Positions 572 to 61,238 of a DNA stretch of 64,000 nt are shown here, one piece after another. This DNA is from Candidatus Dojkabacteria bacterium. Its GTDB lineage: Bacteria; Patescibacteriota; Dojkabacteria; SC72. How positions within the stretch are numbered: position 1 is the stretch's first letter; the number at the start of each line of letters is the position of its first letter. Position numbers and translations under genes: made by a program. The stretch is taken from contig JBMNHB010000001.1 in NCBI GenBank assembly GCA_050950145.1, positions 208,511 through 272,510 of the forward strand, in the 5' to 3' direction. The notes beneath the pieces were generated by a model. That model searched no databases. It saw only the letters and a program-made list of their open reading frames with translations, and was not told where the DNA came from.

Positions 572-1549
572 TTATAGTTTACTGTATACCCATAGGAAAG
601 TATTTTCTAAATGAAGTTTTTGTAGAAAAATGTATATCCATACTATCATTCTTATAGAGAAAACCTCTCCTTTAGGTCTAAAAGGTGATATATTTTTGTT
701 TTTGGAATACTTAGGATAGTTTTCTCTAACCCAGTTAAAAATTTGTTTTGCCTCTGACTTTAATATTGTATACTCTGTTTTTCTTCCTGAGTGTAGAATG
801 TAATAAATAGCTGTTTTAACAATGAAGTATTCTAGGAGGCTCTCTTCAATCTTAGACATCTTTGTTGATTTTGAATACTCTTTTATCTTTTCTAAAAGAG
901 GTATGAAGTCTACATTCTTTTTCATTCCTTTGTGTAGAGTATTGGATGTTGAGGTCTTTTTATCTACCCAGTTATAACCAGTATAGGGGATTGTTTCTAC
1001 TTTTAATTTGAGGTTAGTATTAATATTTAGTCCGATATCTTCTCCAATATTTAGATTTAGGAAGGAGATATTATTTTTGACTAAAGCATCTTTTCTGTAT
1101 ACTCTTCCCCAAGGTGTAATAAACATATATTTGGACCAGGGAGAATCAATTGGTTGTTTCTGATAAAGAACTTCTCCTTCCTCTGTGACTCTCCTATACC
1201 CACCAATAACAACATCACACTTTCTTTCTTCTATTTCATTTACAAAAGTTTCTACATAGTCAGGATCTATATAATCATCATTGTCTATAAAGAATAGATA
1301 TTTTCCAGATGAATACTTTATGCCATTGTTTCTAGTAGTAGCAATACCTGAGTTTTTCTGTGTGTATGCTTTTATTTTATTAGGATATTTCTTTTTATAC
1401 CTCTCTATTATCTCTTGAGATTTATCAACAGATCCATCATTTACCAATATAATTTCAAAATCTTGATCTGTTTGATTTAGAATACTATCTAGGCAGTAAG
1501 ATAGAGTTTTCTCTGCATTGTAAACAGGAATAATAAAAGAAGTTTTCAT
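572..1549 (-). CDS. Family 2 glycosyltransferase
   Basis: N-terminus IPVYNAEKTLSYCLDSILNQT...ILVNDGSVDKS...FIDNDD is the canonical GT2 (Glycos_transf_2) signature. Confidence 0.7.
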   Translation of the reverse strand: MKTSFIIPVYNAEKTLSYCLDSILNQTDQDFEIILVNDGSVDKSQEIIERYKKKYPNKIKAYTQKNSGIATTRNNGIKYSSGKYLFFIDNDDYIDPDYVETFVNEIEERKCDVVIGGYRRVTEEGEVLYQKQPIDSPWSKYMFITPWGRVYRKDALVKNNISFLNLNIGEDIGLNINTNLKLKVETIPYTGYNWVDKKTSTSNTLHKGMKKNVDFIPLLEKIKEYSKSTKMSKIEESLLEYFIVKTAIYYILHSGRKTEYTILKSEAKQIFNWVRENYPKYSKNKNISPFRPKGEVFSIRMIVWIYIFLQKLHLENTFLWVYSKL

Positions 1550-28837: not shown

Positions 28838-31747
28838 ATGTTCAAGTTTCTAACAAAAATATTTGATTCAAATGAAAAACAATTGGCTAAGATACAGCCA
28901 ATTATTGATGATATTAATGATAGGGAGAAGAGTATCTCTAAACTTTCTGATGAAGAGCTAAAAGCAAAGACAGAGCAGTTAAGGAAAGAGATAGGGGTTG
29001 ATTTGGAAACAGCAAGAACTGATTTTACAACCCTTAATGATGAGGAACTCAAAAAGAATTTAGATGAAGAGAAGAAAAAGTTGTATGAGTTACTTCCTGA
29101 GGCATTTGCTGTTGTAAGAGAAGCTTCAAAAAGAGTTGCTAATCATAGGCATTTTGATGTTCAGTTAATGGCTGGATATGTTTTGTTTGATAACAAGATT
29201 GCTGAGTTGTTTACAGGTGAGGGTAAGACTTTAGCTGCGAATCTTCCTCTGTATCTTTACGCTTTAACTGGAAGAGGAGCACACTTAGTTACAGTAAATG
29301 ATTACTTAGCAAGAAGAGATGCGGAGTGGACAGGACATATTCTTCATTCTTTAGGTATGACTGTAGGAGCAATTAACTCTGGAAAGCAGTACAGATTTAT
29401 AGACGATGAGGAAGCTATTAAGATTAAAGGAGATGAAGCGAAGAAGTTGATTAAGGAGAGGGATGCGAAGCTTAAGGAGGCAGGAAGATTGAAGTATGAT
29501 CATATGAGTGGTGTAAATCTTGTTGAGTGTACAAAACAGGAGACATATGCTTGTGATGTTGTATATGGTACTAACAGTGAGTTTGGTTTTGACTATCTTA
29601 GGGATAATATGGCTAGAAGTTTAGAAGAGAGAGTACAAGGTCCTAGATATTTTGTAATTGTTGATGAGGCTGACTCCATTTTAATTGATGAGGCGAGAAC
29701 TCCTTTGATTATCTCTACTAGTGCAGATACAGCTAATGACTTGTACAGACAATTTGCAAGTATTGTTAATTCATTGCAAAAAGAAGTTCACTATACAGTG
29801 GATGAAAAAGCACATGCAGTATCACTTAATCAGGAAGGTATGGATACGGTTGAGAAGATGCTTAAGGTAAAAAATGTATATGAGAATGCACAGTTGGCAT
29901 ATCATCTGGATAATGCACTTAAAGCAAAAGAACTCTATCACTTGGATGATGAATATATGATTAGGAATGGTGAGATACTCATTGTTGATGAATTTACAGG
30001 TAGAGCGATGGAGGGAAGAAGATACAGTGAAGGTCTTCATCAGGCAATTGAAGCAAAGGAGGGTGTAGAGGTAAAGAAGGAATCTAAGACAATGGCAACA
30101 ATTACATTGCAGAACTTCTTTAGACTTTATACATATCTTTCAGGTATGACAGGTACAGCTATAACTGAGGCAGAGGAATTTTCACAAATCTATCATCTTG
30201 ATACCATTGTTGTTCCTACTAATAGAGAGGTTGTAAGACAGGACTACACAGATGTTGTTTACAGAACTCAGGAAGGGAAGTTTAAGGCAATAGTTAGAGA
30301 GATAGTTGAGAGACATGCAAAAGGACAACCAATATTAGTTGGTACTACATCAGTAGAGAAGTCTGAAATTCTTTCAGATATGTTAAGAAAGGAAGGAATT
30401 AAGCACAATGTTCTTAATGCAAAGCAGCATGAACTTGAGGCTAAGATTGTAGCAGAGGCAGGACAGTTAGGGGCTGTAACAATTGCAACTAATATGGCTG
30501 GTAGAGGTACAGATATTGCTCTAGGTGAAGGTGTAAAGGAAGTAGGAGGGTTGTATGTAATTGGTTCTGAAAGACATGAGTCAAGAAGAATTGATAATCA
30601 GTTAAGAGGTAGGTCTGGTAGACAGGGAGATCCAGGAGAATCTAAATTCTTTGTTTCTTTTGAAGATGATCTGATGAGAATATTTGGTGGGGATAGGATG
30701 AAGATGATAATGGGGCAGGTTGGTTTAGATGATGATATAGAAGTATCTGTAGGTGTGATTGGTAAGTCAATTGAGAATGCACAGAAGAAAGTTGAGGCAT
30801 CAAACTATGATATTCGTAAAAGACTAGTTGAGTATGATGATGTCTTAAATCAACAAAGAGAAATAATATATACCTTAAGAAGAAAGATTTTGGAGATAGA
30901 TCTAAAGAGTGATGTAAAGCTTACAGAGAAGGATTTGGAGAAGGATATGAAGATTGTTAAGGAGGTAGATATTGAGAGTGTACAGGATAGTTTTGATGGT
31001 TTTGCTCTTAACAGGCCAGATAGTTGGGATACATACGGACTTAGAGATGTGAAGTATCCATTCTCACCACTGGATAAGTGGATTCTTAAGAAGACCTTAG
31101 AATATATTGATTTCCTCATTGCATCTTCGTTGGAAGATGATATGAAGATTGATAATATTGAGGAGAGAGGAATATATACCAATGTTATTAATCTTCTTAC
31201 TGAGGATTTAGTTGATGTTGCTTCTGTATCTCTTGGTTACAAAGATACAACAGAGATGTTTAGAAAATTCTATACTCTTTCTAGAGTAGAGAGTACAAGT
31301 GAACTTAAAAGATTAATTCTTTGTGCATTTACAATACATACTTACTCTATTGGTGTTGAAGCTATGAATTCTCTTTCTAGATACTTAATTCTTCAGTCAT
31401 TTGATAGATTCTGGATGGAACATTTAGATACTATGACAGATTTAAGAGAGGGTATATCTTTAAGAAACTTAGCACAGAAAGATCCTCTTGTTGAATACAA
31501 GAATGAAGGATTTGAGATGTTTGATGAGATGTTAAGAAAGATAGATGATTTTGTTGTAACAAGATTCTTTAAGGTTAGATTAGTTTCTAATGAGCCAGAG
31601 AGAAGGCAACAGGTATCACGAAGTGAGGATAACAGACCAGGTAAGGTTGGTAAGCAGAAGACTGTTAAGAAAGGAAACAAGGTAGGAAGAAATGATCCTT
31701 GTCCATGTGGTAGTGGCAAGAAATACAAAAAATGTTGTGGGAGATAA
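28838..31747 (+). CDS. secA: Preprotein translocase ATPase SecA
   Basis: 969 aa. DEAD-like motor motifs (VIVDEADSILIDEARTPLIIS, MAGRGTDI) and a C-terminal zinc finger CPCGSGKKYKKCCG. Confidence 0.95.
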   Translation: MFKFLTKIFDSNEKQLAKIQPIIDDINDREKSISKLSDEELKAKTEQLRKEIGVDLETARTDFTTLNDEELKKNLDEEKKKLYELLPEAFAVVREASKRVANHRHFDVQLMAGYVLFDNKIAELFTGEGKTLAANLPLYLYALTGRGAHLVTVNDYLARRDAEWTGHILHSLGMTVGAINSGKQYRFIDDEEAIKIKGDEAKKLIKERDAKLKEAGRLKYDHMSGVNLVECTKQETYACDVVYGTNSEFGFDYLRDNMARSLEERVQGPRYFVIVDEADSILIDEARTPLIISTSADTANDLYRQFASIVNSLQKEVHYTVDEKAHAVSLNQEGMDTVEKMLKVKNVYENAQLAYHLDNALKAKELYHLDDEYMIRNGEILIVDEFTGRAMEGRRYSEGLHQAIEAKEGVEVKKESKTMATITLQNFFRLYTYLSGMTGTAITEAEEFSQIYHLDTIVVPTNREVVRQDYTDVVYRTQEGKFKAIVREIVERHAKGQPILVGTTSVEKSEILSDMLRKEGIKHNVLNAKQHELEAKIVAEAGQLGAVTIATNMAGRGTDIALGEGVKEVGGLYVIGSERHESRRIDNQLRGRSGRQGDPGESKFFVSFEDDLMRIFGGDRMKMIMGQVGLDDDIEVSVGVIGKSIENAQKKVEASNYDIRKRLVEYDDVLNQQREIIYTLRRKILEIDLKSDVKLTEKDLEKDMKIVKEVDIESVQDSFDGFALNRPDSWDTYGLRDVKYPFSPLDKWILKKTLEYIDFLIASSLEDDMKIDNIEERGIYTNVINLLTEDLVDVASVSLGYKDTTEMFRKFYTLSRVESTSELKRLILCAFTIHTYSIGVEAMNSLSRYLILQSFDRFWMEHLDTMTDLREGISLRNLAQKDPLVEYKNEGFEMFDEMLRKIDDFVVTRFFKVRLVSNEPERRQQVSRSEDNRPGKVGKQKTVKKGNKVGRNDPCPCGSGKKYKKCCGR

Positions 31748-32872: not shown

Positions 32873-32931
32873 AAGGATGTGTTGTATGATTTAATTTGTA
32901 GATATTAATAGTGTCATCTTAAATAATTCTT

Positions 32932-32981
32932 GACAGACTTAAGAGAGGGTATATCTTTAAGAAACTTAGCATAGAAAGATA
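32932..32981 (+). pseudogene. 50-nt near-identical copy (2 mismatches) of internal secA coding sequence (31434-31483, encoding DLREGISLRNLAQKD), non-coding here
   Basis: Direct alignment: ttgacagacttaagagagggtatatctttaagaaacttagcatagaaagat versus secA atgacagatttaagagagggtatatctttaagaaacttagcacagaaagat. Confidence 0.7.
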
Positions 32982-45301: not shown

Positions 45302-46291
45302 ATGAAAGAAGAAAGTAATAATACAAAGAAACTTTCTTTAACTAAAAAGCAGAAAATTCTGCTTGTAATCTCAATACTTCTTTTTCTTGTAATATGCTTA
45401 GAGATAGTATTATTTATCCATGCAAGAAAGAACAAGGATACTGGTATAAATCAGGATAGAAGGAGTAAGAAGATAGTTGCAGAATTACAGGAAGAAGAGG
45501 AATTAGTAATAAGGGAAGAGGAAATGGTAGAGGATGTAGAAAAGCCATCATCAACACCATCCAAACCCTCCGAAGAAACATCATCTAGTACTCCTTCCTC
45601 AGAATCTAAGACACCTGTGTTTGAGGCCTTGCCACCTCCAAAGATAGTACCTCCGAGAGAACAAGTTGAAAGTTTATGGACTCCTGATGCTACAAGTGTG
45701 ATTATAGATTCAAAGGAAACAATAACAATTAATGGTACAAAATACTTAACAGTAACAGTAAGAAGGGGAACACTTAAAGTTGGAGATACTCTTAAACAAA
45801 CAGGTATTTGTGAGATAGTACCTAATGTCTCGACAAGGATAACTAAAATGATTAAGGCAGGAAAGTTAGTAAATTCTGCAACTGTATCGGAGTCAGTTGG
45901 TATTGCTATGGATAATGATTATTTCTACAAACGAGCAACCTTTGGTACAGATATGCAATTAGCTACTAAAGTAAAACTTAAAGTATATGTATTTACTAAG
46001 GAAGAAGGAAACACGAAAGAACAATCTGTTGTAAACAATCAAGGTTATCTTCTTTCTTTCGTACCTGAAGACCCTTCGGGTAGAACTTTCATAACAGGAA
46101 ACGGTACACCTGTAATATCAAAACCCATTAAGCCTGGAGAAGCTGCGGAGATAGAGATGAGAAAGTTTATAATGCTTGGAGGTCCTGCTTTGTATGAACC
46201 TGGAACAAGAATAAAAGTAAAAGACCAGAATACTAATGAGCAAATAGGTATTGCAGTTATTACTGGATATCCACCATGTCCACATAAATAA
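45302..46291 (+). CDS. Hypothetical membrane-anchored/secreted protein (N-terminal TM, Ser/Pro-rich linker, C-terminal globular domain)
   Basis: LLVISILLFLVICLEIVLFI TM helix, then a PSSTPSKPSEETSSSTPSSESKTP linker. Confidence 0.4.
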   Translation: MKEESNNTKKLSLTKKQKILLVISILLFLVICLEIVLFIHARKNKDTGINQDRRSKKIVAELQEEEELVIREEEMVEDVEKPSSTPSKPSEETSSSTPSSESKTPVFEALPPPKIVPPREQVESLWTPDATSVIIDSKETITINGTKYLTVTVRRGTLKVGDTLKQTGICEIVPNVSTRITKMIKAGKLVNSATVSESVGIAMDNDYFYKRATFGTDMQLATKVKLKVYVFTKEEGNTKEQSVVNNQGYLLSFVPEDPSGRTFITGNGTPVISKPIKPGEAAEIEMRKFIMLGGPALYEPGTRIKVKDQNTNEQIGIAVITGYPPCPHK

Positions 46292-47344: not shown

Positions 47345-47821
47345 CTATTCTAGTTTAACACCTTTTTCTAAATCTAGTAATTTTTTCTTTATCTCAACAC
47401 CTCCTCTATATCCTATCATTGCTCCACTTGTAGAGATTACTCTGTGACAAGGTATTAGTATGGGTAGGGGATTCCTATTACACACCATACCTACCGATCT
47501 ATATGCTCTAGAATTGTGTACTTCTCTAGCTATATCTTTGTATGTAATAGTTTCTCCATATGGAATCTTTTTTAATATTTTCATTACATCTAAAAAGAAT
47601 GTAGAGGCTGAGGTGTAGTATATATTAATATCAAAAGTTTTTCTTTTTCCATCTAGATATTCATTAATCTGTTTGATTGTTTTTCTTTTAAGAGGGGTAT
47701 CTTTCTCTATCCATGATGGATCATATCTTTCACCATCATATACAACTGCTATCACCTTATTATCTTTTTCACCTATTCCAATTCTTCCAATCTTAGTATC
47801 ATAGAAAAATACTGTTACCAT
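47345..47821 (-). CDS. ogt: Methylated-DNA--protein-cysteine methyltransferase
   Basis: IPCHRVI active-site motif, plus a helix-turn-helix region upstream. Confidence 0.8.
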   Translation of the reverse strand: MVTVFFYDTKIGRIGIGEKDNKVIAVVYDGERYDPSWIEKDTPLKRKTIKQINEYLDGKRKTFDINIYYTSASTFFLDVMKILKKIPYGETITYKDIAREVHNSRAYRSVGMVCNRNPLPILIPCHRVISTSGAMIGYRGGVEIKKKLLDLEKGVKLE

Positions 47822-47929
47822 ACTATATTATAGCATGGATAGAATTTAAAAGCATATGCAAGCTATATATGCAATATATCTTTTCTTTAATTTGATGTAG
47901 CAGTAGTGATTTTATATAATTACACCAAT

Positions 47930-47985
47930 GGACAGGGTAGACCCTCTGCCGTATTGAAATAATATACACAATGCGGAGGTAATCG
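47930..47985 (+). repeat. Hairpin repeat copy 1 in the ogt/proS divergent region (conserved 26-nt core; CCTCTG/CGGAGG stem)
   Basis: Core ccctctgccgtattgaaataatatac at 47941-47966. The second copy lies exactly 100 nt downstream. Confidence 0.6.
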
Positions 47986-48029
47986 CCCTGTTTATCTTTC
48001 TGACATTATTTTGTATAATAAAAGCAATA

Positions 48030-48085
48030 AGTAGGGGAGTACCCTCTGTTGTATTGAAATAATATACGGAAAACGGAGGCCAAAA
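48030..48085 (+). repeat. Hairpin repeat copy 2, lying in the probable proS 5' leader
   Basis: Core ccctctgttgtattgaaataatatac at 48041-48066. Preceded by a TGTATAAT extended -10-like box at 48010-48017. Confidence 0.6.
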
Positions 48086-48184
48086 CTCTACTTTTTACTT
48101 CATAGTAACTTTAGAGATACTTCTCAATCATTGCTTTATCCTTTCCTTTCAATTAGAATTAATCATTAATTAATCAAACCTAGT

Positions 48185-49612
48185 ATGGAAGAGAAAAAGA
48201 TAACAAGTAGAGAAGAAGATTTCTCACAATGGTATTTAGATGTAATTAGAGTAGCAGAACTTGTTGAACACGGTCCTGTTAGAGGTACTATGATTATCAG
48301 ACCATACGGATATGCAATCTGGGAAAATATTCAAAAAGAATTTGATAAAAGAATTAAAGCAACAGGTGTAGAAAATGCATACTTTCCTCTTTTCATACCT
48401 AATGAATTTTTACACAGAGAAGCTAAACATGTAGAGGGTTTCTCTCCTGAAGTTGTTGTTGTAACTCATGCAGGAGGTGAAGAATTAAAAGAACCTTTTG
48501 TAGTTAGACCAACATCTGAAACAATTATGTATGATGCATATTCAAGATGGGTAGAATCATACAAAGATCTTCCAATATTAATTAACCAATGGGCAAATGT
48601 AGTTAGATGGGAAGTTAGACCAAGATTGTTTTTAAGAAGTACAGAGTTCCTTTGGCAGGAAGGACACACAGCACATGCTACACCAGAGGAGGCAGATGAA
48701 AGAGCACAGCAGATGTTGTTTGAATACAAAAAATTTGCAGAAGAGTTTTTAGCAATACCTGTTTTTGTTGGTAAGAAGACAGATTCAGAAAGATTTGCAG
48801 GTGCAGATATTACATATACAACTGAAGCTATGATGCAGGATGGTAAGGCTCTCCAATTTGCAACATCACATAATTTAGGTGATAAATTTGCAAAGGCATT
48901 TGGTATTAAGTTTGTAGATGAGGATGGTGATATTAAGTATTGTTACCAAACAAGCTGGGGAATGAGTACAAGAACTTTAGGAGGATTAATTATGGTTCAT
49001 AGTGATGATAATGGTTTTGTTGTTCCTCCAAAAGTAGCACCATATGAGGTTGTCATAATTCCTGTTTGGCCAAAACCTGAAGATAGGGAGATGGTAGATA
49101 AAGAGGTTGAGAAATTAAAAGAAACTCTTGAGAAAGATTTTAGAGTTAAGGTTGATAATACTGATTTAAGAGTAGGTGAAAAATTCTACAAGTGGGAGAA
49201 GAAAGGTGCACCTTTGAGATTAGAGATTGGTCCTAGAGATATCAATGAAGGTCATGTTGTTCTTGCAAGAAGAGATACAGGTGAGAAGGTTACTGTAAAG
49301 ATGAATGACTTAACAAAGGAGATTAAAAGGTTGTTAGAAGATATTCAGAAGAATCTTTTTGATATTGCAAAAAAGAGAATGGATGAAAATACTGTAAGGG
49401 TTGAAAATTATGATGAGTTTAAGAAAGCAATTGAAGACAGAAAGTTTGTATTAGGATATTGGGCAGGTAGTAGTGATGATGAGGCTAAGCTAAAAGAAGA
49501 GACAATGGCAACAGTAAGGTGTTTCCCATTTGAACATAAAGATGAGAGAGGAAAATGTTTCTATACAGGTAAAGAAGGTGCTAAACTTGCTCTATTGGCA
49601 AGGTCATATTAA
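48185..49612 (+). CDS. proS: Prolyl-tRNA synthetase, archaeal/eukaryotic-type architecture (no INS editing domain)
   Basis: EDFSQWYLDVIRVAELVEHGPVRGTMIIRPYGYAIWE N-terminus, class II motifs and a C-terminal zinc-like domain. Length 475 aa. Confidence 0.9.
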   Translation: MEEKKITSREEDFSQWYLDVIRVAELVEHGPVRGTMIIRPYGYAIWENIQKEFDKRIKATGVENAYFPLFIPNEFLHREAKHVEGFSPEVVVVTHAGGEELKEPFVVRPTSETIMYDAYSRWVESYKDLPILINQWANVVRWEVRPRLFLRSTEFLWQEGHTAHATPEEADERAQQMLFEYKKFAEEFLAIPVFVGKKTDSERFAGADITYTTEAMMQDGKALQFATSHNLGDKFAKAFGIKFVDEDGDIKYCYQTSWGMSTRTLGGLIMVHSDDNGFVVPPKVAPYEVVIIPVWPKPEDREMVDKEVEKLKETLEKDFRVKVDNTDLRVGEKFYKWEKKGAPLRLEIGPRDINEGHVVLARRDTGEKVTVKMNDLTKEIKRLLEDIQKNLFDIAKKRMDENTVRVENYDEFKKAIEDRKFVLGYWAGSSDDEAKLKEETMATVRCFPFEHKDERGKCFYTGKEGAKLALLARSY

Positions 49613-59190: not shown

Positions 59191-60222
59191 ATGAATGTTA
59201 TAGTACTATGTGGTGGTCTTAGTCCTGAGAGAGATGTATCTCTGTCTTCTGGTGCATTAATAGGGAATGCTTTGTTAAAGAATAATCATAGTGTATGTAT
59301 GTTAGATCTGTATTTAGGTTGTGATATTCCTAAGGGTGGTATATCTAAGTTGTTTAAGAAAGGTGGTAAACCATTTAAATATGTAGTACCTAAGAATGAA
59401 CCTGATTTAGCAGAATTAGAAAAGATATATGGTAGTGAGAAGATAGGGAAGAATGTATTAGAGATATGTAAGTATAGTGATATTGTATTTTTAGGATTAC
59501 ATGGTGATATTGGAGAGAATGGTAAGTTACAGAAAATATTTGAAGATTTAGGTATTAGATATACAGGTAGTGATTCTAAATCTTCTATGTTAGCTATGGA
59601 TAAAGGTAAGAGTAAGGATATGTTTGTTAAGAATGGTATTCTTACTCCTAAGTATGTAATAGTTAGGAAAGGAGAAGAGGTACCTAAGTTTGATATTCCT
59701 TGTGTAGTTAAACCATTGGATTGTGGTTCTAGTGTAGGGGTTAGGATAGTAAGAAGTAAGGATGAGTTAGATGATGCTGTTAGAGAGGCTAGGAGGTATT
59801 CTGATGATATTCTTCTTGAGGAGTATGTAAAGGGTAGGGAGTTTTCTGTAGGCATACTGAATGGGGAGGTGTTACCTAGTATTGAGATTATACCTAAACA
59901 TGGTTTCTATGATTACAAGAACAAGTATCAGAAGGGAGCTAGTATTGAAGTATGTCCTAGTAACTTAACCCAAGAGAAAGAGGAAGAGGTAAGGAGTATT
60001 GCATTAAGAGTACATAATGTATTGGGTTTGGGTAGTTATTCTAGGATAGATTTTTTACTTAGTGATACAAAAAACAAATTTTTTTGTTTAGAAGCTAATA
60101 CATTACCTGGTATGACTCCTACTAGTTTATTACCACAGGAAGCTATGGTAGTAGGTATATCATTTGAAGAGTTATGTGAAAGGGTGGTGAGTAGTCTAGA
60201 GTATGGGATAGTAATGAAATAA
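59191..60222 (+). CDS. ddl: D-alanine--D-alanine ligase
   Basis: MNVIVLCGGLSPERDVSLSSG N-terminus and an ATP-grasp C-terminal domain. Length 343 aa. Confidence 0.85.
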   Translation: MNVIVLCGGLSPERDVSLSSGALIGNALLKNNHSVCMLDLYLGCDIPKGGISKLFKKGGKPFKYVVPKNEPDLAELEKIYGSEKIGKNVLEICKYSDIVFLGLHGDIGENGKLQKIFEDLGIRYTGSDSKSSMLAMDKGKSKDMFVKNGILTPKYVIVRKGEEVPKFDIPCVVKPLDCGSSVGVRIVRSKDELDDAVREARRYSDDILLEEYVKGREFSVGILNGEVLPSIEIIPKHGFYDYKNKYQKGASIEVCPSNLTQEKEEEVRSIALRVHNVLGLGSYSRIDFLLSDTKNKFFCLEANTLPGMTPTSLLPQEAMVVGISFEELCERVVSSLEYGIVMK

Positions 60223-60380
60223 TAGTGTTCTATATCCCTGAAACAGGTAGAATCAGATGTAACTCATATGATGATAAAGGAAACGAAATATATAATCCAG
60301 AGTGTGTTGATTTTCTAGTTTTTCCTGTATTCATCTTAGAGTATTAGCTTTGTACCAGAGTAAATCTATCTCTTTTTCTT

Positions 60381-60475
60381 TGAAAATACCCCTAATTTTT
60401 GTATAATATATATAGAGAGGTGGAGGCCACTTGACCCCTTTGTGTCAGGGTTAGGTTTCCATCTTTTTTATTTCC
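60381..60475 (+). repeat. 95-nt repeat unit A: TGTATAAT-like box, then a long GC-rich hairpin (loop CCCTTTGTGTC) and a T-tract. Intrinsic-terminator-like, possibly an sRNA unit
   Basis: About 93% identical to unit B, which sits exactly 200 nt downstream. GGTGGAGG/CTTCCATC outer stem and ACTTGACCC/GGGTTAGGT inner stem, followed by TTTTTTATTT. Confidence 0.6.
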
Positions 60476-60516
60476 ATTTGCTTTCATACTGCACTTTTTA
60501 TATAACAAAGATAGGA

Positions 60517-60570
60517 AGAGGGAGGTTACCCGAACCCTTTGTGTCGGGTCTTATCTCCCTCTTTTGTAAT
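60517..60570 (+). repeat. Related hairpin element between units A and B (outer AGAGGGAG/CTCCCTCT, inner ACCCGA/TCGGGT, same CCCTTTGTG loop) followed by TTTTG
   Basis: Seen directly. Shares the loop motif with units A and B. Confidence 0.5.
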
Positions 60571-60580
60571 CTAAGAAATT

Positions 60581-60675
60581 GAAAAATCCCCTTATTTTTT
60601 GTATAATATATATAGAGAGGTGGAGGCCACCTGACCCCTTTGTGTCAGGGTTAGGCTTCCACCTTTTTTATTTCC
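60581..60675 (+). repeat. 95-nt repeat unit B. Its 3' end overlaps the last 8 codons of the minus-strand ORF 60651-61133
   Basis: Carries compensatory changes relative to unit A (T to C making C-G from T-G in the inner stem; outer stem GGTGGAGG/CTTCCACC). Confidence 0.6.
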
Positions 60676-61133
60676 AACATATCAATAACCTCCTTATTCC
60701 TTACGATAATAATATTTACATTACCTCTTTGATTATTAAGTAGATATCTCCTAGTTCTATGTATAGCTTCTTTCTTAATTTCCTTAATACTTTTCTTATT
60801 ACCACTAACATCTAAAAGTATTACACCTTCTCCTTTTATCTGTTGTAGTCCTTTCCTTGTTTGACTATCTATACTAGACCTACCTTTAGCTGTTTTAATT
60901 TCTAATTTAATACCAGACCAGATAGCATCAGGCATTTTAATACCACTTTGTACATCTACCTTTAGAAACTTTATCTTCCCACCAAATTCTTTAACCACAA
61001 CCTCTGCCATACTCATCTCATGCTTACTTGGTTTCCTCTGTCTTCTATCTATATCCCCTACACCAGGTGTTAATCTTTTTCTAAAAGTATTCTTAATACT
61101 TCTAACCTCAATTAGAATATCTATATTACTCAT
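60651..61133 (-). CDS. Hypothetical basic protein
   Basis: ORF only; 160 aa. Confidence 0.35.
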   Translation of the reverse strand: MSNIDILIEVRSIKNTFRKRLTPGVGDIDRRQRKPSKHEMSMAEVVVKEFGGKIKFLKVDVQSGIKMPDAIWSGIKLEIKTAKGRSSIDSQTRKGLQQIKGEGVILLDVSGNKKSIKEIKKEAIHRTRRYLLNNQRGNVNIIIVRNKEVIDMLEIKKVEA

Positions 61134-61238
61134 GTATGGATATATCTAAATTATCTCCATACACATTCTAAATACTAAAAATGAATTTCAGATTAACAGA
61201 TATAGTATAATGGAGGAATAATATGACAATATAAAAGT

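Follow-up and report, generated by a model that had tools for sequence, protein, structure and literature searches.

Predicted convergent small hairpin RNA genes next to a CdiA-CT-like nuclease gene in a genome of Candidatus Dojkabacteria

We analysed a stretch of 64,000 nucleotides (nt) of a Candidatus Dojkabacteria genome (contig JBMNHB010000001.1, positions 208,511 to 272,510), here called the window. Three short repeated units, A, M and B, are located behind the gene ddl, and the last of these overlaps the 3' end of an open reading frame (ORF) on the opposite strand (60651–61133). The units have the layout of complete small RNA (sRNA) genes, and the ORF product is predicted to be a nuclease related to the CdiA-CT toxins. 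An earlier, sequence-only reading of the same stretch had noticed the overlap but not that the ORF is a toxin-like nuclease gene with the unit as its sole conserved neighbour. From comparing homologous loci, we consider it very likely that the units are dedicated RNA partner genes of the nuclease gene. This is based on the constant linkage with a convergent 3' overlap, the conserved promoter, the strand-specific covariation and the toxin-like fold with its catalytic residues. We further propose, with a probability of about 0.6, that the RNA neutralises the nuclease as a cognate antitoxin or immunity factor. The pairing of a CdiA-CT-like nuclease domain with a convergent small hairpin RNA is widespread and apparently undescribed.

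The repeat units and the overlap with the nuclease gene

Repeat finding detected A (60383–60476) and B (60583–60676) as direct repeats of 94 nt each that are 94% identical and start exactly 200 nt apart, in agreement with the sequence-only reading. In both units, TTGAAA and TATAAT with a spacer of 16 or 17 nt match the sigma-70 consensus at 11 of 12 positions. These are the top two promoter-like sites in a 4-kb scan (58.5–62.5 kb), and their score is reached by 0.09% of random 50-nt pieces of the window, which is AT-rich (G+C 0.32). The sequence TGTATAAT, which had been described as an extended -10-like box, differs from the canonical extended -10 TGnTATAAT. About 7 nt past the -10 box starts a hairpin with two tiers of 10 and 6 bp, a 1x4 internal loop and an 8-nt loop (CCCUUUGU), followed by T6. 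The predicted transcripts fold as had been described, with -25.0 kcal/mol for A (60414–60473, z -4.1) and -31.8 kcal/mol for B (60614–60673, z -5.4), and the opposite strand of the units folds more poorly (z -0.4 to -2.9).

The middle hairpin, M, had been described as a related element with different stems but with the loop motif of A and B. Its outer arms do differ and its inner hairpin is almost identical to theirs; however, it is a diverged third copy with its own promoter (TTGCTT-17-TATAAC), so that the array has a period of 100 nt. Its predicted transcript (60513–60570) folds with -27.6 kcal/mol (z -4.3). The GC-rich hairpins of -25 to -32 kcal/mol, together with the T6 in A and B, have the form of rho-independent terminators; in M, the hairpin is followed by T4 only. 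A simple terminator scanner detected just the inner stem of unit A. The motif CCCTTTGTGTC is present in exactly three copies in the 64 kb, one in each unit, but 3 of 100 shuffles match that and the count is thus weak evidence alone. An Rfam scan of the whole window at gathering thresholds found two tRNAs only, and a permissive scan (E <= 10) of 60200–60800 found nothing meaningful. The positions of all features are given in Table 1.

Table 1. Features of the window. Transcription starts of the sRNAs are inferred positions; z, z-score of the predicted fold; CM, covariance model.
Feature	Position	Strand	Remarks
Orphan unit 1, second sRNA family	47915..48000	+	TATAAT 47915-47920; two-tier hairpin 47932-47991; z -4.1
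Orphan unit 2, second sRNA family	48014..48097	+	TATAAT 48014-48019; hairpin; T5 48092-48096; z -3.1
Promoter of A	60380-60385 (-35), 60402-60407 (-10)	+	TTGAAA, 16-nt spacer, TATAAT; 11/12 match
Predicted sRNA A, type 1	60414..60469	+	overlaps no gene; z -4.1; CM match 89.8 bits
Stems of sRNA A	outer 60419-60428/60454-60463; inner 60430-60435/60444-60449	+	
Loop and T-tract of sRNA A	60436-60443; 60464-60469	+	loop CCCTTTGT; T6
Promoter of M, weakened	60478..60506	+	TTGCTT, 17-nt spacer, TATAAC; compared with L002, L003, L005, L011
Predicted sRNA M, type 2a	60513..60565	+	z -4.3; CM match 51.7 bits
Stems of sRNA M	outer 60516-60526/60553-60563; inner 60529-60533/60544-60548	+	TTTT, then G
Promoter of B	60579..60607	+	TTGAAA 60579-60584, 17-nt spacer, TATAAT 60602-60607; 11/12 match
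Predicted sRNA B, type 1, putative cognate of the nuclease ORF	60614..60669	+	z -5.4; CM match 96.8 bits
Stems of sRNA B	outer 60619-60628/60654-60663; inner 60630-60635/60644-60649	+	
Predicted PD-(D/E)xK nuclease, standalone, 160 aa, CdiA-CT(Bp1026b)-like toxin domain	60651..61133	-	profile and fold comparison
Upstream region of the nuclease gene, travels with the cassette	61134..61205	-	blastn boundary; weak promoter-like site

To assess selection on the RNA, homologous units were aligned. With the -10 box and the inner hairpin as anchors, 20 distinct units can be aligned with almost no gaps. TATAAT is among the most conserved blocks; its distance to the hairpin is constant in 18 of these units, and nine units score 11/12. 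Among type 1 units (10 sequences), 97.8% of the cells are paired and eight pairs are changed on both sides (0 of 500 shuffles; slid controls 37–59%). Among type 2 units (seven sequences), all cells are paired and five pairs are changed on both sides, for instance GAGGGAGGU/AUCUCCCUC to GAGAAAAGC/GCUUUUCUC (slid controls 51–62%). Within the window, all three differences between the hairpins of A and B place C or U opposite G; pairing is kept, as had been noted, by one-sided changes only, and it is the homologues that supply the compensatory changes. The fixed promoter distance and the covarying stems back the earlier suggestion that the units would be very short sRNA genes. Frequent G-U pairs would be C-A mismatches if the other strand were read. 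From these pairs and the fold energies, we conclude that the structured strand is the convergent one, opposed to the ORF.

Conservation is uneven along the unit. The inner hairpin and its loop (CCYGRMCCC-UUUGUG-YCRGG) are conserved far above the outer arms, the leader and the promoter spacer, and in type 1 units this part is located outside the coding sequence (CDS). Unit 1 of locus L018 folds unlike the others and looks degenerate. The units would form a covarying family of RNAs with a length of about 55 nt, for which neither Rfam nor the searched literature has a match.

The ORF that converges on unit B has no match in Pfam (none at E <= 1), PHROG or NCBIfam. A profile search found 498 relatives, most of which are the C-terminal ~150 aa of proteins of 250–550 aa. 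In these fused relatives, the N-termini match Phage_Mu_F, Phage_min_cap2, VG15 or portal proteins, and the C-termini match Pfam CdiA_C (PF18451). PF18451 is the family of the Bp1026b tRNase (PMC9990079), and the same domain, as cd13442, is among the listed MuF phage toxins (PMC5576092). Remote profile matches reach CdiA_C at E 1e-3 to 3e-11. The window protein itself does not reach the gathering score of PF18451, and a CdiA_C match (E 6e-4) was found for one of the 13 clade members. Sequence searches of the PDB with the profiles A2 and A9 gave no match, and the CdiA-CT relatives emerged from fold comparison only. An AlphaFold2 (AF2) model based on 29 sequences has an alpha/beta nuclease fold; it supersedes a first model based on nine sequences (pLDDT 60), whose N-terminal half was unreliable. 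The modelled fold corresponds to that of CdiA-CT Bp1026b with the catalytic D...ExK, with 4g6v_A as the best structural match. The residues H38-E39, P68-D69, E78-x-K80 and D108 are conserved, and H38-E39, D69, E78-x-K80 and D108 are invariant. Judged by profile and model, the ORF encodes a polymorphic-toxin nuclease domain that stands alone and is related to the tRNase toxins of the CdiA-CT type, and by this homology the nuclease alone would be toxic.

No conserved protein neighbour or adjoining ORF was found beside the standalone genes at the loci examined. In particular, the small co-directional immunity ORF that directly follows the toxin gene in polymorphic toxin–immunity pairs is missing. 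The 5' untranslated region (UTR) of the nuclease gene contains a hairpin (GTATGGA...TCCATAC; 61134–61170, minus strand) directly before the ATG, which would sequester the sole GGAG and is kept in the homologous 5' UTRs of L002, L016, L018 and L022. It can be likened to the translation-inert leaders of toxin mRNAs.

Unit B covers the stop codon and the last seven to eight codons of the ORF, as the sequence-only reading had stated. The complement of the stop codon (TTA, 60651–60653) lies within the internal loop GTTA (60650–60653) of sRNA B. Furthermore, the 3' arm GGCTTCCACC corresponds to the codons A-E-V of the nuclease, and T6 (60664–60669) is the complement of two lysine codons at its conserved C-terminus EIKK. 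Thus, the same bases encode a terminator and the C-terminus of the nuclease. In other clade members, the stop is located in the apical loop or past the hairpin, and the overlapped part of the sRNA varies from about 25 nt to all of it. If both strands are transcribed, the RNA of unit B would be complementary to the toxin mRNA, as in toxin–antitoxin (TA) systems of type I, and the geometry is the same at every homologue locus.

Homologous loci and the history of the array

A pattern scan of metagenomes with CCYGAMCCCTTTGTGTCRGG found 14 loci, which comprise nine related contigs and five chance matches. The latter (L006, L007, L009, L013 and L015; G+C 0.24 or 0.48–0.60) lack the flanking architecture and were discarded. 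The related contigs contain one to three tandem units with a spacing of 99–101 nt; L001 duplicates the window sequence and is uninformative. The DNA pattern had no match in viral contigs, and a protein scan of genome contigs found two loci only.

The linkage between unit and nuclease gene is constant. All 13 distinct standalone homologues examined (P0001 from the window, P0003, P0005, P0006, P0007, P0008, P0009, P0010, P0011, P0013, P0017, P0027 and P0053; ~30–100% identity) have a convergent unit of promoter, hairpin and T-tract over the 3' end or the stop of the gene. The flanks differ among the loci, and the host G+C ranges from 0.23 to 0.48. P0001 to P0009 lie in unrelated neighbourhoods (type I restriction–modification (R-M), DUF3800, AbiEii/PIN, RecG/RelA, LiaF/hydrolase), with the convergent unit in each. 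Less similar proteins have further contexts, namely UDG/PIF1 for P0010 (54% identity to the window protein), RadC/rpsB for P0011 (43%) and UDG/FtsK for P0013 (37%); TetR is also found among the flanks. Three homologues are very distant: P0027 (G+C 0.48), P0053 (G+C 0.23, two tandem units) and P0017 (promoter TTGACA-17-TACAAT). Their hairpin sequences are unlike the window type, whereas the architecture is alike.

Blastn against unrelated contexts places the boundaries of the shared sequence at ~60564–60594 and ~61196–61205. This defines a cassette of about 630 bp (window ~60570–61205) with two genes, one for the RNA and one for the nuclease. In L016, the next ORF is just 69 nt away from the nuclease gene. 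DUF3800 genes recur beside the cassette (L016, L017, L002 and L026), and R-M, AbiEii and PIN genes are frequent in its surroundings. Among related strains, the interval between ddl and the cassette (window 60223–60380) is a variable island, with ~7.6 kb extra in L010 and L012. An exact look-up of the ddl product gave no record.

The three units of the window appear to differ in their history. A and M are 95% identical to a pair of units (t1 and t2a) in L005 and L002, where the counterpart of M directly overlaps a toxin gene with a type 2 end (P0008). In the window, a type 1 cassette, that is, B and the nuclease gene, occupies the place of the P0008-type gene, and M has a weakened T-run and a weakened -10 box (TATAAC, compared to TATAAT in the relatives). 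Probably, the cognate gene of M was replaced and M itself is an orphan in decay. A chimeric unit with the 5' arm of type 2a and the 3' arm of type 1 (8 of 11 outer pairs) is present at L002 13680–13742 (minus strand) and L012 7786–7848 (plus strand). It adjoins a ~50-nt remnant of the 3' end of a toxin gene, next to a DUF3800 gene, and looks like a recombination scar of cassette turnover. Overall, it looks as if cassettes had been replaced and orphan RNA genes left over, by analogy with the orphan immunity genes that accumulate in polymorphic-toxin loci.

The window contains a second pair of units at 47.9 kb, which are 100 nt apart, located between ogt (47345–47821, minus strand) and proS (48185–49612, plus strand), and unrelated in sequence to A and B. 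Their inner helix CCUCUGCC...GCGGAGG, with a loop of 22 nt, resembles the helix of the phage clade described below. In L031, an RNA of the 47.9-kb type (725–850, minus strand) converges on and overlaps a gene whose 156-aa product is remotely paralogous to the toxin family (hhalign probability 91%, E 9e-7). A gene of this paralogue type neither adjoins the 47.9-kb pair nor occurs elsewhere in the window, and we thus regard the two units as intact orphans. The L031 paralogue also has a weak tblastn match (E 0.16) at L012 4185–4346 (minus strand), in the island between ddl and the units, where the nuclease family may have one more diverged member.

Phage loci with the same toxin domain

When viral contigs were scanned with an alignment of the MuF-type toxin domain, 80 loci were found, of which 52 are distinct. 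In 50 of these 52, a convergent hairpin with the inner helix CCUCYGCY-N3-9-GGYGGGGG is located at the stop codon (median distance between motif and stop-codon complement, 10 nt). A T-run of at least five in 41 loci is the complement of the conserved ...RYKK* codons, and a TAnAWT box stands upstream of the hairpin in 41 loci. The motif matches the strand opposite to the gene 60 times, compared to 11 times for the gene strand. The hairpins are located within co-directional late operons and point the opposite way. Two phage contigs, L058 and L129, have two tandem convergent hairpin units past the toxin domain. Tandem copies of the RNA gene have thus arisen again in the phages, as they have in L039 and the window.

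An Rfam scan of 20 phage loci found no match, and a search of the literature found no RNA partner described for the CdiA-CT-like toxin family. With the full-length MuF toxin P0033 as the query for viral contigs, only the MuF part gave matches, and alignment A9 was too diverse for pattern extraction. A weak match of the phage model (18.9 bits, E 1.2) at L030 4826–4888 (minus strand), with a promoter-like sequence, a hairpin and T9, may be a further unit of like kind. We also considered whether the inner helix of the phage hairpin mimics a tRNA acceptor stem; on inspection, the register of tRNA-Ala G3-U70 does not fit, and the idea stays speculative.

Possible action of the RNA and alternative explanations

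We propose that each unit would act as a full small gene, with a sigma-70-type promoter, a two-tier hairpin transcript of ~55 nt and an intrinsic terminator. In an RNA transcribed from unit B, the last codons and the stop of the nuclease gene are complemented by the 3' arm, the internal loop and the U-tract, so that this RNA would pair with the nuclease mRNA at its 3' end. Pairing could lower toxin synthesis as in 3'-overlapping type I systems, by duplex cleavage, loss of the stop codon or interference between convergent transcripts. Less firmly, we suggest that the conserved apical hairpin might in addition be recognised directly; the simplest binder would be the nuclease, for which the hairpin would be an inhibitor or a pseudo-substrate. 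With such recognition, action in trans would become possible for units that are extra or orphaned (A, M and the 47.9-kb pair), and both the conservation of the apical hairpin and the intact orphans hint at direct recognition. Between these two modes, neutralisation dominated by antisense pairing is a tentative proposal, and neutralisation dominated by protein binding appears rather doubtful.

Antitoxin RNAs that overlap the 3' end of the toxin gene are known from Enterococcus faecalis par (Fst; RNA I and RNA II with a shared bidirectional terminator) and from Bacillus subtilis txpA/RatA and bsrG/SR4. The window locus resembles such convergent systems in its short predicted sRNA with a strong promoter of its own, the shared terminator hairpin and the compact, mobile two-gene unit; a convergent arrangement has also been described for yonT/SR6 (PMC5848175). 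Type I toxins are, however, hydrophobic peptides of less than 60 aa, with SymE and RalR as exceptions, and no type I system is reported from the phylum of this Candidate Phyla Radiation (CPR) host (known phyla: PMC12390103). A nuclease-type toxin under the control of a small RNA is found in RalR/RalA, where the toxin is a DNase, and in SymE/SymR (PMC4041452). In contrast to the locus described here, RalA is encoded in trans and complementary over 16 nt, the overlap of SymR is at the 5' end, and the protein folds are unrelated. With CdiA-CT/CdiI, SitA3/SitI3 and the MuF toxins, the locus shares the toxin domain, a neutralising (here putative) gene that is located immediately 3' and travels along, and the accumulation of orphan neutralisers. 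In those pairs, the described immunity factors are co-directionally encoded proteins, whereas here the partner is a predicted convergent sRNA gene and the standalone forms lack a protein partner.

Several observations weigh against a neutralising RNA. The whole case is comparative, and both the expression of the sRNA and the toxicity of the nuclease are deduced from sequence. The nuclease, with 160 aa and predicted to be soluble, is unlike the classical type I toxins. The sRNA has no complementarity to the 5' region or the ribosome binding site (RBS) of the nuclease mRNA (RNAduplex z -1.1 to +1.8); any antisense effect would thus be limited to the 3' end, and control of translation from there would be indirect. 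A second contact with the toxin 5' UTR, like that in par, was looked for and not found, and past the hairpin no clear U-tract is seen on the minus strand. Furthermore, the apical hairpin is conserved and orphan or tandem units are intact, neither of which pure cis-antisense action would require. Direct recognition by a protein would explain these two features, and it would be needed if the MuF toxins act as delivered proteins. In about half of the phage loci, an ORF of 60–400 aa that starts 69–187 nt downstream could encode a protein immunity factor, and Jamet et al. assume that immunity to MuF toxins is proteinaceous. Where a co-directional ORF comes next in the phages, it begins at this distance and does not adjoin the toxin gene, two loci excepted. 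Lastly, the phage-derived covariance model R2 matches window-type units only marginally (E 0.4–1.3, best E 0.38). We thus claim a shared architecture but not homology of the RNAs across the clades.

A bolder version of RNA neutralisation, which we put forward as speculative, covers the CdiA-CT Bp1026b-like domain family as a whole, including hundreds of phage MuF-type toxins and the standalone copies in CPR and other genomes. The family would be neutralised by a tail-to-tail structured RNA instead of a protein, with the apical helix bound to the nuclease as an inhibitor or tRNA-like pseudo-substrate, and orphans such as A, M and the 47.9-kb pair would be an immunity stock against incoming toxins.

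Alternatively, the RNA might act in the manner of type III systems only. The hairpin would bind the nuclease as an inhibitor or tRNA-like pseudo-substrate, the overlap would keep the two genes inseparable and let them share a terminator, and antisense pairing would be irrelevant. This would fit the apical hairpin, which is kept from 100% to 37% protein identity and mostly outside the CDS, while the outer stems vary freely as long as pairing holds, and the phage clade has a different, equally conserved inner helix. Promoters and stems are kept in orphan and extra units, tandem arrays are found in several lineages, and delivery as proteins is assumed for the phage MuF toxins (PMC5576092), which would require immunity at the protein level. 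Type III systems (ToxIN, CptIN and TenpIN) likewise combine an RNase-type toxin with a structured tandem-repeat RNA whose motif co-varies with the toxin clade (PMC5086642, PMC8860590). However, their repeats are located upstream and co-directionally in one precursor that is cut by a toxin of the ToxN fold. Here, the units are downstream and convergent, each with its own promoter and terminator, and the predicted fold is PD-(D/E)xK and not that of ToxN, AbiQ or CptN. A strict 3' overlap in more than 60 independent loci would also be unneeded. We therefore consider a purely type III-like action unlikely.

An ordinary cis-antisense tuning of a non-toxic housekeeping or repair nuclease is improbable. 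The geometry would fit equally well, and the PD-(D/E)xK group includes many non-toxic nucleases such as NucS and Hjc. However, the nearest relatives by sequence and structure are C-terminal domains of polymorphic toxins, and the distribution is patchy and cassette-like, in variable or defence-rich neighbourhoods. The strong promoter of the sRNA compared to the weak promoter of the gene, whose GGAG would be buried by the 5'-UTR hairpin, also speaks against routine tuning.

It is very improbable that the units are merely intrinsic, possibly bidirectional terminators or insulators between convergent genes, which includes the triple terminator for ddl that the sequence-only reading had offered. 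Each unit does have a GC-rich hairpin and a T-tract on the ddl strand, and read-through from ddl would be stopped as a by-product. However, in L010, L011 and L012 a distance of more than 6 kb separates ddl from the units, and the units track the convergent nuclease gene and no upstream gene. A terminator has no need of a TATAAT at a fixed distance before every hairpin, and the phage hairpins have the wrong orientation for terminators inside late operons.

The least credible explanation is a mobile repeat, similar to repetitive extragenic palindromic (REP) elements or miniature inverted-repeat transposable elements (MITE), or an attC-like recombination site: tandem copies, the chimeric copy by the gene remnant (L002 13680–13742) and the mobility of the cassette would fit, but covariance model R1 of the unit matches only beside a nuclease gene or its remnant in 179 kb including the window, which leaves no dispersed copies there and does not support the REP-like behaviour considered earlier, the strand-specific G-U pairs and fold energies indicate an RNA and not a DNA structure, and the promoter is conserved. 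A weak R1 match at 45989–46066 lies inside an ORF, has a fold z of -1.3, and was dismissed as chance.

If neutralisation by the RNA is correct, a widespread toxin domain (498 profile matches, common in MuF proteins of temperate phages) would have an RNA as its conserved genetic partner, and an enzymatic toxin family with a new fold would join the RNA-antitoxin systems. The CPR would have its first module of this kind, together with a new, very small (~55 nt) structured RNA family that shows clear covariation and is not in Rfam. The view that immunity to polymorphic toxins is always proteinaceous would be questioned, which would affect searches for immunity genes in phage and contact-dependent inhibition (CDI)-type loci. 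Should immunity moreover act by protein binding, it would constitute a class of RNA-based immunity that bridges type I and type III TA systems and polymorphic toxin systems.

Elsewhere in the window, we observed a direct repeat of 50 nt at 31434–31483 and 32931–32980, whose copies are 96% identical and 1497 nt apart.

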